64,000 nucleotides of DNA from NCBI GenBank assembly GCA_964016885.1, contig CAXHJY010000567.1:1-64000 (forward strand). The letters are read 5' to 3'. The position numbers and the translations under genes are program-made. This DNA comes from Eledone cirrhosa. Lineage: Eukaryota. The notes under the pieces are model-generated. The model did not search any database. It saw only the letters and a program-made list of their open reading frames with translations, and was not told where the DNA came from. The number at the start of each line of letters is the position of its first letter. The stretch's first letter is position 1. Below are positions 1,481-64,000 of the stretch, one piece after another.

Positions 1481-1688
1481 GGAACGAGTAGGACCCCGAC
1501 GGCTGAGCTCAAGCCGTTTCGACGTCTAATTCTGGACTAAAATATTTTTAGTCCAGAATTAGCCGTCGAAACGGCTTGAGCTCAGCCGTCGGGGTCCTGC
1601 TCGTTCCAATTACCCACTCTACTACCCTAAGTATTGAGTACTTTGGTGCGTTATGGTCCATCTGGTTCCTTACCACATTTCCTTCGTT
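1481..1688 (+). mobile_element. Short Penelope-like fold-back element, family A, copy 1
   Basis: Palindrome 1481-1607 contains GAAACGGCTTGAGCTCAGCCGTC-GGGGTCC (3' half of a hammerhead). An 80-nt tail follows, and (TA)n flanks both sides. Near-identical to 14174-14365 and 33484-33681. Confidence 0.7.
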
Positions 1689-1774
1689 ATATATATATAT
1701 ATATATTAATTAAAATAACAGATTAAAGTTTAAGCAAAGAATCGCTGCTTTCACCCTTAACGGGATCTTCTGAA

Positions 1775-2290
1775 ATATATATATATATATAAATATACAT
1801 ATATATATAGTGTGTGATAGTGTGTCTGCATATATGTATATATATATATATATATATATATATATATATATGTGTATATATATATATATATATGTGTGTA
1901 TATATATATATATATATATATATATATGTGTGTATATATATATATGTGTATATATATGTGTGTGTATATATATATATGTGTATATATATGTGTGTGTATA
2001 TATATATGTGTGTGTATATATATATGTGTGTGTATATATATATGTGTATATATATATATGTATATATGTGTATATATATATATATATATGTATATATATA
2101 TATGTGTATATGTATATATATGTATATATGTATATATGTATATATATATATATGTATATATATATATATGTATATATATATATATGTATATATATATATA
2201 TATATGTATATGTATATATATATATGTATATGTATATATATATATATATATATATGTGTATATATGTATATGTATATATATATATATATT
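1775..2290. repeat. (TA)n/(TATG) microsatellite
   Basis: Directly visible. Confidence 0.95.
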
Positions 2291-2295
2291 TTTTG

Positions 2296-2497
2296 GGAAC
2301 GATCGACTTTCGTCAAATCGGACCGTTGGTCTTTCCAGTTGCTAATACTATCTATCGGTCGCAACTCCAGGTAGAAGGAGCAACGTGAAGTAAAGTGTCT
2401 TGCTCAAGGACATAACGCATCGCCTGGTCCAAGAATCAAACTCACAACCTTACGATTGCGAATCCAATTCTCTAACCACTCAGCCACACGCCTTCAC
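2296..2497 (-). mobile_element. tRNA-derived SINE with CORE-like domain
   Basis: Minus strand reads GGCGTGTGGCTGAGTGGTTAG (A box), a B-box-like segment, then TGTCCTTGAGCAAGACACTT. Second copy at 55552-55769. Confidence 0.8.
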
Positions 2498-2985
2498 GAT
2501 ATATATGTATATATATATATATGTATATATATATATATATATAAATCTCTATATATATATATAAATCTATATATATATATTTATATAAATCTATATATAT
2601 ATATATATATATATATATATATAAATCTCTCTCTCTCTCTATATATATATATATATATATATAAATCTATATATATATCTAGCACAGCATGGTCTTGAGA
2701 AGAAGAAAGAAGACTTAATAATAAATAAGAGATAATAAAATTTTATCAACGTATTAATGATAAATATCGCTTATGACCTTCCGCAATTTTCTATGCCACT
2801 ACATTGAAAGATTTCTTCCCCCAAGAAATACCAGAGTTATAGTGAAAGAAAGAAATAATTACACTTGAAATAATGCAGATGGTGAGAGAAAAAAATATGC
2901 AATATAATTAATAAGACAAAATAAAATAAAATGTATAATAATCTTATCAGTAACGTATAACACAATTTGTTCGTCCTGTAGAGAG

Positions 2986-3510
2986 GTATGTATGTATGGA
3001 AGAATGTAAGAATGTATGGAGGGATGACTGTATGGATGGATGAATGTATGGATGGATGTATGTATGTATGTATGAATGTAAGAATGTATGGATGGTTGTA
3101 TGTATGTATGTATGAATGTATGTATGTATGCATATATATATATATATATATATATATTTATATTTATACAGAGAGAGAAAGGCATATATATTTAGGTAAA
3201 TATATATGTATAAAAACATATAGATATATAGACATATATATATATATATATATATATATATATATATATGTGTATATATATGTCTGTGTATATATATATA
3301 TATGTGTATATATATGTGTGTATATATATACAAATATATATATATATATACATATATACATACATAGTACACACACACATACATATACACACATATATAT
3401 ATATATATATATATATATATATATATATATATACACACACATACATACATAACCAATATCTAACTATATATGTGTGTCTGTGTGTGTGTGTGTGTGTATA
3501 TATATATGTA
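2986..3510. repeat. Compound (TATG)/(TA)/(CA) microsatellite
   Basis: Directly visible. Confidence 0.9.
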
Positions 3511-3516
3511 TTGCTT

Positions 3517-60596: not shown

Positions 60597-60607
60597 AATA
60601 ATAATTA

Positions 60608-62359
60608 CACCGTGTAGCTAATTTCTGTTCCCCGGTTCTAAGTGTCATTTCCTGGTTTGGTATAACACTATTATATAAAAACTCTATTATTTAATCAGAA
60701 GTTTGGGTTTGGGGTCAGGATTTTGGTATTTCGAAATGTTCATATTGTTCAAGAAAAAACACATTTTTTTTAAATTTATCAGTTCATATAATTAATTCAA
60801 CAGAGTATATATTTATTTCATTACACAAGCTTATCACAAGCTTATCAAAAGCAAACAAGTAAAAACAAATAACACTTATAAATCTGCTTATACACGTCAG
60901 AAATTACTGGATTTCCTGGATTTGCAGTTGTAGTCCAGGTCGCATTCCCGCACTAGTCCCCATATATAGTCCCCCATCATTTTTTCATTGTTGTGGCCCT
61001 GGTACCTCCGCTCTATCTCTTTCACATCTTGGTGGAATCGTTCGCCTTGTTCTTCTGAGCAGGCGCCCATATTGTCCTTGAAGTTTTCTAGGTGAGTGTC
61101 CAGCATATGGAGTTTAAGTGACATTTGCATCCCTTGGCGGCAAAAGCCTTTATCAGATCCTGCATCATTTGCTGGTAGTTTTCAGCTCTGTAGTTGCCCA
61201 AGCACCCCTTAACAACTGCATTGAATCAGTTCCACACTGTTCTCTCAATCCTATTGAGCTTATTGGAGAACTCGGTAGACTCAAACACGTTCTTTATCTG
61301 AGGTCCACCAACAATTCCACCTTTGATTTGGGCCTCAGATAACTTGGGGAAGAACTCAAGAAGGTACTTAAAAACGGCTGATTCTTGGTTGAGAGTCTTC
61401 ACAAACTGCTTCATCACCCCCGACTTAATGTGCAGTGGCGGCATGAGCAGAAGCCTGGGATCAACTATTGGCTCCCACATGACGTTCCGGGTCCCAACTA
61501 CAAATTCTGTTCGCTGCTCCCAGTTCTTTCTTGTGTAGAGGTCAGAGGGGGCTCTGCTGTCCCAAAGGCAGAGGAAGCATTGGAATTTGATAAAGCCTCC
61601 TTGTAGTCCAAGCAGGAAAGCCACCATCTTGAAGTCTCCAATTATTTCCCAATTGTACTGGTTGTATTGCAGAGCTTCCAAGAGGACTTTCACACTGTAG
61701 TAATCTTCCTTCAGGCAGACTCAATGAGCTAGGGGCAGTGTCGGGAACATGTTTCCATTGTGGAGGAGGACAGCCTTCAAACTTGTGGTTGAGCTGTCTA
61801 TAAATAGCCGCCACCCCTTGAGCACAAACGGCGACCCAATAACGTCAAACAGTCCAGGCAGGTCATGGCAGAAGCAAAGGCCATCCCTAAGAGTGTAAAA
61901 GCCTGAGAAAGATTAGTGTCTACTTCTCTGACTTGTCACCTGCACTTCCTCCTTCACCAATTTCCACTGCTTCATCCTGGAGACGAATGCTTAAAATACA
62001 ACTTACCCTTTATTCAGGGTGCGAAAATCCAGTATCCATAAATCTCTTTAATCCACTTTTTAACAATTTTATACTCTATTGCACTTTTATAATTTTCTTT
62101 AGGTATTACTCTTTATGTTATAATTTTAATTTAACCTGAAACATATATAAAAAAATAATTTAACATTAGCAAATTAAACTTACATACAACGTAAAATGCA
62201 GTATACATACAAATAATTCTAGTGAATAGCTTAGCATATTTACAAACCCGAACTTTTAACTGTTTAATAGCACTTTTTTTAATTTATTTGGGAACTAAGC
62301 AACACAAAATGTGATTACAAGCCAGGAACAGAGGAAACAAATTTTTTTGTTACACAGTG
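60608..62359 (-). mobile_element. Chapaev3 (CMC superfamily) DNA transposon, decayed, both ends present
   Basis: Termini CACCGTGTAG.../...TTACACAGTG flanked by TTA (60605-60607 and 62360-62362). Contains a transposase relic. Confidence 0.85.
60897..61990 (-). pseudogene. Chapaev3 transposase pseudogene
   Basis: WRLFIDSSTTSLKAVLLHNGN, GDFKMV..LLGLQGG, CFLCLWDSRA, PPLHIK, LKLHML and SEEQGERFHQD..ERRYQG motifs. Several stops and a frameshift. Confidence 0.9.
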
Positions 62360-63018
62360 TTATAGTAATAGTTGTAGAAAGTGTTGTGACCAGCAGATGA
62401 TATCACGAACAAGAGAAAAACTAATAAAAAGACAACAGCTTTCTTGCTACAATCTAAAGATATTTTTTTTTTCTTTTCGTTTTCTTGTTTCACCCACACG
62501 ACCCTTAGATTAGTCATGGTAAAGCAGATTTCCAATTGAACAAATGCTATTGCATTCATGTCCAAACCTTCCATATTGTGTTGTTTTTATTTTATTTTAG
62601 AACAATGTCGTATGCATTGGGATGGACTACTGTCGGCTTTGACGATGATTGCTCCTGTTGACCAATCAATAGAAACGCCTTAACGTTCAATGAAAGTGTT
62701 AGCAACTAAGTATTGCGTAAGCACATACATCTCATAGGTCCCCACCCAGCGCCGTGTTTTTGTATACACACGTACACAAACACGCACACAAACTCCCTCC
62801 CCCCATATATATATATATGTGTGTGTGAGTGTGTGTGTAAAGAAGATATTAAAATATGGTTAAAGAAGTTCCATATATTTTATAAAAATACATACGTATA
62901 TGCATCCTTATATAGATGAATATATATACATATATATATTTATGTATGTATATATGTATGTATATTCATTTATATAAAGATTCATATACGTATGTATTTT
63001 TATATTTATATTATATTA

Positions 63019-63210
63019 GGGTGGTAGATTGACAGTATTGGCAGAGAGTCGGACGGCATGCTTTGTAGCATAGAGTTACGGCCCTTTACGGTATGAGTTC
63101 AAATCTCACCAAGGTTAACTTTGCGTCTCATCCTTAAGGTGTCGATAAAATAAAGTACCAGTAATGCACTAGAATAATTGCTGGCCTTGTTCCAAAAGTG
63201 GAAACAATTA
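63019..63210 (+). mobile_element. SINE (main family)
   Basis: Full consensus. Confidence 0.85.
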
Positions 63211-63511
63211 CATTATACTATATTATATTATATTATAGTATATTATATGCAAGGTGATACCCTGGCTGGTAATTGTAACTGACTCGAAGTGTCTTGATAT
63301 ATATATATATATTTATATATATATATATATATATATATTTATATATATATATATATATATATATATATATATATATATATATATATATATATATATATTT
63401 AAAAGAATAGAGGTGTAACACACGAGTTGTGATATATTAGTAAAAGGAAAAGAAAATGGTGACAAATTTTTCCCAGCGAAAAGTAGCAAACATCACGAGC
63501 ACTCTATCTCA

Positions 63512-63557
63512 AAATTATTTTTGAAAAGCATTAGAAATGCGCAACGGGTAATAATTT
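63512..63557 (+). ncRNA. Decayed hammerhead-like motif with U3-A8 core variant
   Basis: AAATTAT(tt)-TTGAAAA-GCATT aga AATGC-GCAA-CGGG-TA-ATAATTT. Confidence 0.4.
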
Positions 63558-63866
63558 ATACCTAAAACTGAATACTAACCAATACTTATTACTAATTTAT
63601 ACTTATTCCTAATTCCTATTTTTCACCGGGAAAAATTTGTCAGCATATTCTTTTCCTTTTAGTAATACATATATATATATATATATATATATATATGTGT
63701 GTGTGTATACATATGTATACATCAGTGTGTGTGAAAGAAAGTATTACACCGAAAAAGATATAGAGTTCGGTGAGAAATGAGAGTATACATTTATTGGCTT
63801 TAACCCATGCGGAGGAATATGGTATAATATATATATATATATATATATATGTATATATATATACTA

Positions 63867-64000
63867 TATTCCGGGTTGAATCGGAGGTAACTACAATAAG
63901 TAAGGTACTCAATACATAGCAGAGTATAAACGTTTCTACTTTTATTTTCTACTATAAAAGATTCCTGATGATTTCTAAATTAATGAAAAAGTTCTAGTCT
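63867..64000. mobile_element. Family B element, second copy (runs off the window)
   Basis: Inverted tail matching 41786-41850, then GATTC-CTGATGA-...-GAAA..GTTCTAGTC at 63960-63999. Confidence 0.7.

Follow-up and report, generated by a model that had tools for sequence, protein, structure and literature searches.

The repeats described here lie in the first 64,000 nucleotides (forward strand) of contig CAXHJY010000567.1 from Eledone cirrhosa (assembly GCA_964016885.1), hereafter the window. They are probably the 5'-truncated 3' ends of Penelope-like elements (PLEs), each retaining parts of a pseudo-long terminal repeat (pseudo-LTR), a minimal hammerhead ribozyme (HHR) and a tail; on this reading at least six families of endonuclease-positive (EN+) PLEs are represented, whose copies probably entered TA microsatellites through target-primed reverse transcription. 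The window is animal DNA of 28% GC, without N, in which short tandem repeats occupy 26,156 of the 64,000 bases and (TA)n predominates. A Penelope-like origin had already been proposed in a first-pass annotation made from the letters alone, and is upheld by minimal type I hammerheads in which helix III is palindromic, by partial copies in inverted orientation, by tails at one end only and by flanking TA tracts.

Hammerheads were sought with a type I descriptor (core CUGANGA or UUGANAA, helix II of at least 3 bp, GAAA, a palindromic or paired helix III, UH, and a helix I with at least four Watson-Crick pairs), with 40 block dinucleotide shuffles serving as the null. Three intact minimal type I hammerheads were found in the window and none in any shuffle; these are exactly the three cores that had been called intact in the first-pass annotation. 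When one core mismatch is allowed, five motifs are found against a shuffle mean of 0.3 and a maximum of 3, the two additional motifs being both arms of a single family B copy (B1). The hammerhead of family D (32746-32800, minus strand) combines a 5-bp helix I, CUGAAGA, a helix II of 3+7 bp and a palindromic helix III, with a predicted cut after 32751; the minimum free energy fold of the isolated motif contains helices I and II, at -18.7 kcal/mol. Family C holds the other two. That of copy C2 (36865-36929, plus strand) has an 8-bp helix I, CUGAUGA, a helix II of 3+6 bp, GAAA and the helix III AUAUGUAU, with a predicted cut after 36921, and that of copy C4 (38717-38781, plus strand) has an 8-bp helix I and the palindromic helix III AUAUAUAU, with a predicted cut after 38773. 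No hammerhead stands among the 150 of 574 Rfam matches listed for the whole window, nor was any returned at E<=10 for 32400-33850 and 36720-38810; minimal PLE hammerheads evidently lie below the Rfam hammerhead models.

The broader proposal that every family carries a whole or half hammerhead does not stand. Two of the family C copies, at 6349 and 37779, are tail only. In family A the motif is limited to GAAAC and GUC on either side of a 6-bp helix whose loop is palindromic, and such half-motifs are not above chance, as bare GAAAC-stem-GUC halves number 38 in the window against a shuffle mean of 33. If the half-ribozyme of A is real, the case for it would be its place, 17 nt before the tail-less end, compared with 20 nt in B. 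Both copies of family E read UUGAAAA instead of CUGANGA, with a weak helix I and, in copy E2, a changed GAAA. This core would be the U3-A8 covariant that occurs in PLEs of Schistosoma (PMC4209133). A density of one hammerhead-derived motif per 6 kb holds only if halves and degenerate copies are counted, whereas intact cores amount to one per 21 kb.

Families were defined by self-BLAST of the masked window, which recovered all five families of the first-pass annotation (A to E) at their places. Two-armed insertions (A1, A2, A3, B1, C2, D and E2) share one architecture: all seven contain an inverted partial copy of their own end, as had been noticed for most families, and all seven have a tail at one end only. 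The inverted arm ends at a fixed inner point, and the tails measure 81 nt in A, 73 in B, 90 in C and 33 in both D and E. A1 (1481-1688, plus strand) illustrates the arrangement: a tail-less inverted arm (1481-1542) is joined head to head to a forward copy (1546-1688), with 60 of 62 positions identical between the arms, a half-hammerhead-like GAAAC...GUC (the 3' half) at 1568-1590, a tail at 1608-1688 and (TA)n on both sides. A2 (14174-14363, minus strand) is built in the same way in the opposite orientation with a different fusion point, as is A3 (33485-33679, minus strand), in which the arms are identical at 57 of 57 positions. Since the fusion points differ among the three, these copies represent separate events. 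The arms of A3 also have in common three variants that are all absent from A1; taken with their identity, this indicates either a single template or later homogenisation.

The other families vary this plan. B1 (41640-41857, plus strand) is a 145-nt palindrome with its 73-nt tail at one end, and each arm carries a full hammerhead with one core change and a 7-bp helix I (41653-41705, minus strand, and 41719-41771, plus strand). B2 (63870-64000), which is cut by the end of the window, joins a minus-strand tail to a plus-strand copy that begins some 8 nt before CUGAUGA (63965). In C2 (36699-36973) a tail-bearing minus-strand copy, which begins just 3' of the cleavage site, is fused to the tail-less plus-strand copy with the intact hammerhead. 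The tail C3 (37779-37868, minus strand) and the tail-less hammerhead copy C4 (38696-38819, plus strand) together span 37779-38819; by comparison with C2 they are likely one insertion with about 830 nt between its parts, and would thus probably be an eighth two-armed insertion. C1 (6350-6421, minus strand) is a tail with (TA)n on both sides and no hammerhead sequence. D (32664-33463, minus strand) is a 5'-truncated copy of about 700 nt with a 33-nt tail (32664-32696) and a tail-less inverted copy (33398-33460) identical at 59 of 63 positions. The two E copies align at 80% over 50 nt (33759-33808 with 63502-63551). E1 (33710-33822, plus strand) has a possible U3:A8 core variant (UUGAAAA, GAAA, ACCGGU) with a weak, 3-bp helix I between TA tracts, and E2 (63399-63667) has inverted ends at 63432-63489 and 63613-63670, a 33-nt tail on the left end only, a degenerate U3:A8-type motif near 63515-63555, and TA tracts on both sides. 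Copies start 8-14 nt before the core in the B arms, 33 nt in C2 and about 10 nt in D, and inside the presumed helix II in A.

Counting an end as associated with TA microsatellites if (TA)4 or longer lies within 10 nt of it, and taking ends as defined by BLAST only, 17 of 23 ends are associated; the background is 4.5% of unmasked positions, and control repeat ends (SINEs, that is, short interspersed elements, and others) score 2 of 28. In the raw reads of one public run (X15), (TA)n stands directly at the tail-less end of A in 3354 reads. Six ends lie 11-175 nt away (B1 right, 11; E1, 14; A2 left, 17; E2 left, 37; H1, 130; G1, 175), and one uncertain family, F, is not flanked by TA. In the B1 and E2 cases the insertion actually ends farther out, on a TA tract.

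Copies beyond the window were assessed in four of the 17 listed public runs (X1, X5, X8 and X15) over 32520-33679, a segment that holds only D, A3 and a diverged A relative (A'), at 80% likeness; summed contig depth is not copy number, although the shape of the profile is informative. A and D were found in all four runs, which carry three organism labels, though X5 contributed no more than 58 records and X8 no more than 24. In X1 the depth of D is 757,642 over the ribozyme and 189,355 at 32809, then 85,461-155,502, 38,000-61,000, 7,400-8,800 and finally about 300-2,100 toward 33377, where one bin was skipped as repeat. This fall of several hundredfold over about 600 nt moving 5' recurs in X15, with the same trend in X8 and X5, and describes a truncation gradient from a longer parent, preceded by a sharp step just 5' of the ribozyme. 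D also extends past the tail of this copy in 37 X1 contigs and one X8 contig. The tail of A is the deepest part of the segment (3.0 million, about 4x the ribozyme of D). The 5' boundary of A has heterogeneous loose ends (agreement 0.46-0.49), but the X1 consensus of 94 contigs and one X5 contig from another organism agree at 24 of 30 letters by hand count, and A therefore continues upstream in some copies and has a longer parent. Those 30 letters contain no CUGANGA. Pile-ups of molecule ends in X15 (32807, 32922, 33615, 32701, 32720 and 33629) were rejected as biology, since all fall on AATT and were taken as the restriction sites of restriction-site associated DNA (RAD) libraries; the X15 loose ends there, possibly ligation chimeras, were left out. 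Exact-pattern scans returned 0 loci in the metagenome, genome and viral contig collections. No RNA run is among those listed, which speaks neither for nor against expression as self-cleaved RNA.

These observations can be accommodated by a mechanism drawn from published PLE biochemistry. The PLE protein would nick TA tracts on both strands, and cDNA synthesis would begin at two internal sites of the RNA, such that priming at the outer site retains the tail at that end and priming at the inner site leaves the other end without one. Both cDNAs would then break off early, in most cases at the hammerhead or a short way upstream of it, and A, B and C2 would owe their palindromes to head-to-head joining of the two. 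That two primed strands are joined is suggested by analogy with twin priming in L1; snap-back copying followed by endonuclease trimming would fit too. Most copies are likely to have been dead on arrival. The combination of an HHR with TA targeting points to a putative Neptune-like clade.

An 11-nt motif in the tails, RTYGARYRYYY, may mark the putative RNA signal recognised by the PLE protein in this scheme. It occurs 18 times in the window against a shuffle mean of 4.6 and a maximum of 10, an excess that is partly by construction as the pattern was drawn from these copies. Thirteen of the 18 matches lie in the tails of A1 (at 1633), A2, A3, A4, A' (32590), B1 (41804), B2 (63913), C1, C2, C3, H1 (3545), H2 (4143) and I (16959), and five lie elsewhere, as chance predicts. 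The families had been described as unrelated in sequence, a view that needs amending, since A, B, C and two further families have this motif in common. Its position in A, B and C is 20-26 nt inside the tail. The tails of E and G contain no match, and the match found in the read extension of D (loose end at 32669) comes from outside the window. In A the motif is predicted to lie in a local hairpin, a prediction that does not hold consistently in B, C, H and I. The motif could serve the PLE protein as an RNA signal, or it could be what is left of a conserved N-terminal peptide. Read as coding, it gives [IV]E[YCH]; the frame is open for 46 codons in family A and contains stops in B and C, and the coding interpretation is unsupported. 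A more specific proposal is that the PLE protein recognises RTYGARYRYYY as a conserved signal between its two reverse transcription start sites, and that the 140-200 nt copies that stop a short way upstream of the hammerhead arise by run-off at the 5' end of the element RNA, after priming on both strands of the target and with head-to-head fusion of the products. We regard this as tentative and would sooner bet against it than for it; if true, it provides a sequence handle on PLE priming and explains the palindromic insertions. One X8 contig from another organism has a loose end at 33531 with 10 letters beside the A tail motif whose reverse complement includes CUGAUGA; in this single contig the motif would be directly followed by a hammerhead box.

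Several points weigh against truncated PLE ends. The 5' half of the ribozyme of A was never seen, and no relative was found for the 46-residue frame of A, a single match to a 24-fold repeat protein being an unrelated chance match. No reverse transcriptase or GIY-YIG partner was linked to the repeats, as Pfam returned nothing relevant in 12 read-through frames around D and C4; truncated ends would lack the open reading frame (ORF). The tails of A, B and C exceed the published 30-40 nt. No empty site was seen, and the TA tracts may postdate insertion. Stem covariation between C2 and C4, the check put forward in the first-pass annotation, gave a divided outcome: in a manual alignment compared by eye, helices I and II of the two copies differ by one compensatory change (A-U to G-C) and by three that keep a wobble pair, and there is one bulge, whereas RNAalifold on the same two sequences, with helix II misaligned, returned no hammerhead and 0 compensatory pairs. 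Finally, about 75% of the depth of D is lost within some 17 nt 5' of its ribozyme, which is sharper than random truncation; this step could reflect an RNA 5' end, and a dedicated mini-element, or other families sharing the ribozyme alone, would give the same.

The strongest alternative is that at least A, B and the short D copies are dedicated non-autonomous mini-PLEs, comparable to SINEs or retrozymes, of about 140-200 nt, self-transcribed, with a fixed 5' end near the ribozyme and mobilised in trans by PLE proteins. Non-autonomous PLEs are published (PMC8557442; bioRxiv 10.64898/2026.07.22.740005), and the sharp drop 5' of the D ribozyme, the heterogeneous boundary of A, the start of all B arms 8-14 nt before the core, the excess depth of the A tail and the partial tandem of about 480 nt in family G are all compatible with such units. 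However, D extends upstream as a smooth gradient over about 600 nt, the upstream continuation of A is common to two organisms, the fusion points of A1, A2 and A3 differ, and no array with an intact ribozyme in each unit was found, both G copies being defective. The window was searched for head-to-tail arrays with units of 150-450 bp in which two or more successive units each hold a complete type I HHR, and none was found. The proposal of a mini-retroelement or retrozyme-like system made in the first-pass annotation is not supported as the main reading, on this account and on the evidence that the D profile is a 5'-truncation gradient from a longer parent; we consider dedicated mini-elements improbable.

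It had also been suggested that the scattered ribozymes could affect the host through cleavage of read-through transcripts. Intact cores number only three in 64 kb and all have a dimer-type helix III, and the predicted pairing of helix I in context is about 0 in D and in B1, and 0.01 in C4 (0.15 when isolated). Moreover, single minimal HHRs were inactive in vitro (PMC4209133), and the HHR of PAc, a Poseidon element of Anolis, needed the PLE protein, with no RNA-seq reads ending at the PAc site (PMC11167929). Conversely, helix I of C2 is predicted at 0.7-0.8 within its insertion, and C2 and C4 lie on the same strand 1.85 kb apart with helix III sequences that could pair as a heterodimer, which could be the sole route left open to such cleavage. 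A host effect of this kind is thus very unlikely, given the three intact cores, their dimer-type helix III and the predicted masking of D, C4 and B1. Least credible of all are TA-targeting miniature inverted-repeat transposable elements (MITEs) or foldback DNA transposons with incidental hammerhead-like words, to which the 55-63 nt inverted ends of D and E2, the long hairpins of A and B, the TA flanks and the chance-level half-ribozyme of A might point, but against which stand inverted ends that are asymmetric with a tail at one end in seven of seven cases, variable fusion points and many single-armed truncated copies, three complete ribozymes against 0 in 40 shuffles, a 5'-truncation gradient unexpected for a cut-and-paste element, and the failure to find, among the window copies, symmetric terminal inverted repeats reaching both ends at fixed length.

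In addition to the copies named in the first-pass annotation, families F, G, H and I and the fragments A' and A4 were recognised. G (37062-37702, plus strand) is a partial tandem of two hammerhead-like copies (37077-37239 and 37559-37702), each with one defect, a core U4G in one and a helix I mismatch in the other; G2 has a 10-nt palindromic helix III, and TA lies at both outer ends. It is the only partial tandem (pseudo-LTR) in the set, and at 480 nt is too short for an ORF. A' (32531-32645, plus strand) is truncated inside helix III, and A4 (20238-20290, minus strand) is a tail-only fragment of family A adjoining (TA)n. H1 (3507-3637, plus strand) is a tail-type fragment in which no hammerhead was seen, and the second H copy, H2 (4101-4240, plus strand), has its 3' end on (TA)n. 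I (16897-16975, minus strand), a single tail-like piece ending on a (CATA)n array, and F (55020-55195), a palindrome of 119 nt in which one arm carries CUGAAGA and the second a degenerate core, are uncertain members. Possibly another degenerate family is represented at 34139-34360 (plus strand), where a loose hammerhead-like match (34139-34236) starts after a TA tract and, beyond it, the tail motif is matched at 34344 next to TA-like sequence. A long polypyrimidine tract that ends in TTACAG (38470-38556, plus strand) lies some 160 nt 5' of the C4 hammerhead, and could from its letters be the 3' splice site of an intron in a retained PLE 5' untranslated region or of a host gene; D contains a T-rich tract (33200-33306, minus strand) with no clear AG.

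The remainder of the window holds repeats of other kinds. A frameshifted reverse transcriptase fragment of a long interspersed element (LINE) at 40045-40790 (plus strand; Pfam RVT_1, E 2.6e-20) was excluded as a PLE partner, as its best relatives, 60-71% identical, have apurinic/apyrimidinic (AP) endonuclease domains. One SINE family of about 200 nt, which we take to be an octopus-type SINE, has many copies (4863-5613, 32035-32441, 35342-36164, 59638-60594 and others), frequently in head-to-tail arrays of two to four units and without TA association. A degenerate (TA)n array covers 7.3 kb (20732-28020), a recent local duplication of 93-96% identity lies beside (GTGTG)n arrays (18043-18781 and 19356-20090), and an imperfect palindrome about a TA core is found at 62887-62998. 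Threonine-rich repeats of 66/75 nt (TTTT...INDTTRN), mucin-like, form a 658-codon stop-free frame at 52432-54405 (minus strand), which may be a non-coding minisatellite because other frames of the same repeat are also long. Two further loci without a Pfam match may derive from other transposons: a frame at 31203-31457 (plus strand) that we take to resemble the restriction-like endonuclease of a non-LTR element, and frames at 60900-61181 and 61545-61844 (minus strand) that we take to resemble a Chapaev-type transposase.

The finding adds further families to a well described class of PLE remnants, as all of the architectural features in question (minimal hammerheads, TA bias, tails and inverted copies) are already published for PLEs. 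For annotation it serves as a caution, since such palindromes are easily misfiled as microRNA hairpins or MITEs; A3, for example, has weak Rfam scores against several microRNA models. Modest leads on PLE priming come from the tail motif and from the accumulation of 5' ends a short way upstream of the ribozyme, and bear on how PLE proteins choose internal start sites and make inverted insertions. Neither these families nor their tail motif is described in the literature covered, on hammerheads with octopus, on Penelope with twin priming, and on tails, hairpins and non-autonomous PLEs, in a search that extended to neither Repbase nor Dfam and on which paper supplements may bear; the available part of a killifish Neptune paper (PMC12602865) holds nothing relevant to these repeats. 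Octopus vulgaris has 31 recently active Penelope-like families, and the word 'ribozyme' is absent from the main text of that report (PMC13282606).

Amongst known systems, non-LTR retrozymes (PMC7229834; bioRxiv 10.64898/2026.07.22.740005) are similarly non-coding, PLE-related and found in animal genomes with a type I HHR. They are, however, head-to-tail units of 150-450 bp with an HHR in each, whereas the window copies are dispersed, head to head and of minimal type, with only the defective G tandem for comparison. Closer are the minimal HHRs of metazoan PLEs, remnants of which occur in thousands of copies in many animal genomes (PMC4209133). Features in common are the type I topology, a helix II that is long, a helix I that is short and a helix III that is palindromic, the many heterogeneous families per genome, mostly as single motifs from truncated PLEs, the U3-A8 core variant, and opposite-strand pairs 100-700 bp apart. 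Family C differs from them in its 8-bp helix I and in having A-U instead of G-C as the first pair of helix II, and A, if real, in its 6-bp helix III; no full PLE is linked in the window. The EN+ PLEs Penelope/Poseidon, Neptune, Nematis and Naiad (PMC8557442) resemble the present copies in 5' truncation, an inverted truncated copy, a tail at one end and a bias to microsatellites. A (TA)n bias is reported for Naiads, which lack canonical HHRs in contrast to the families described here, and a CX2-5CxxC linker is hypothesised to give such a bias in Neptune. The tails of A, B and C, at 73-90 nt, differ from those of these elements, against 33 nt in D and E2. For the proposed mechanism the nearest counterpart is PAc, the ORF of which begins inside its ribozyme (PMC11167929). 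In vitro, AT-rich target DNA is cleaved on both strands, each of which is then extended, and the tail corresponds to the stretch between two internal reverse transcription start sites. PAc starts in an AC-rich stem-loop 111-118 nt into the ORF, and the part of that study available names no tail motif common to different families; an AT-rich target and a tail bounded by two internal start sites downstream of the HHR are the features in which PAc and the window copies would agree.

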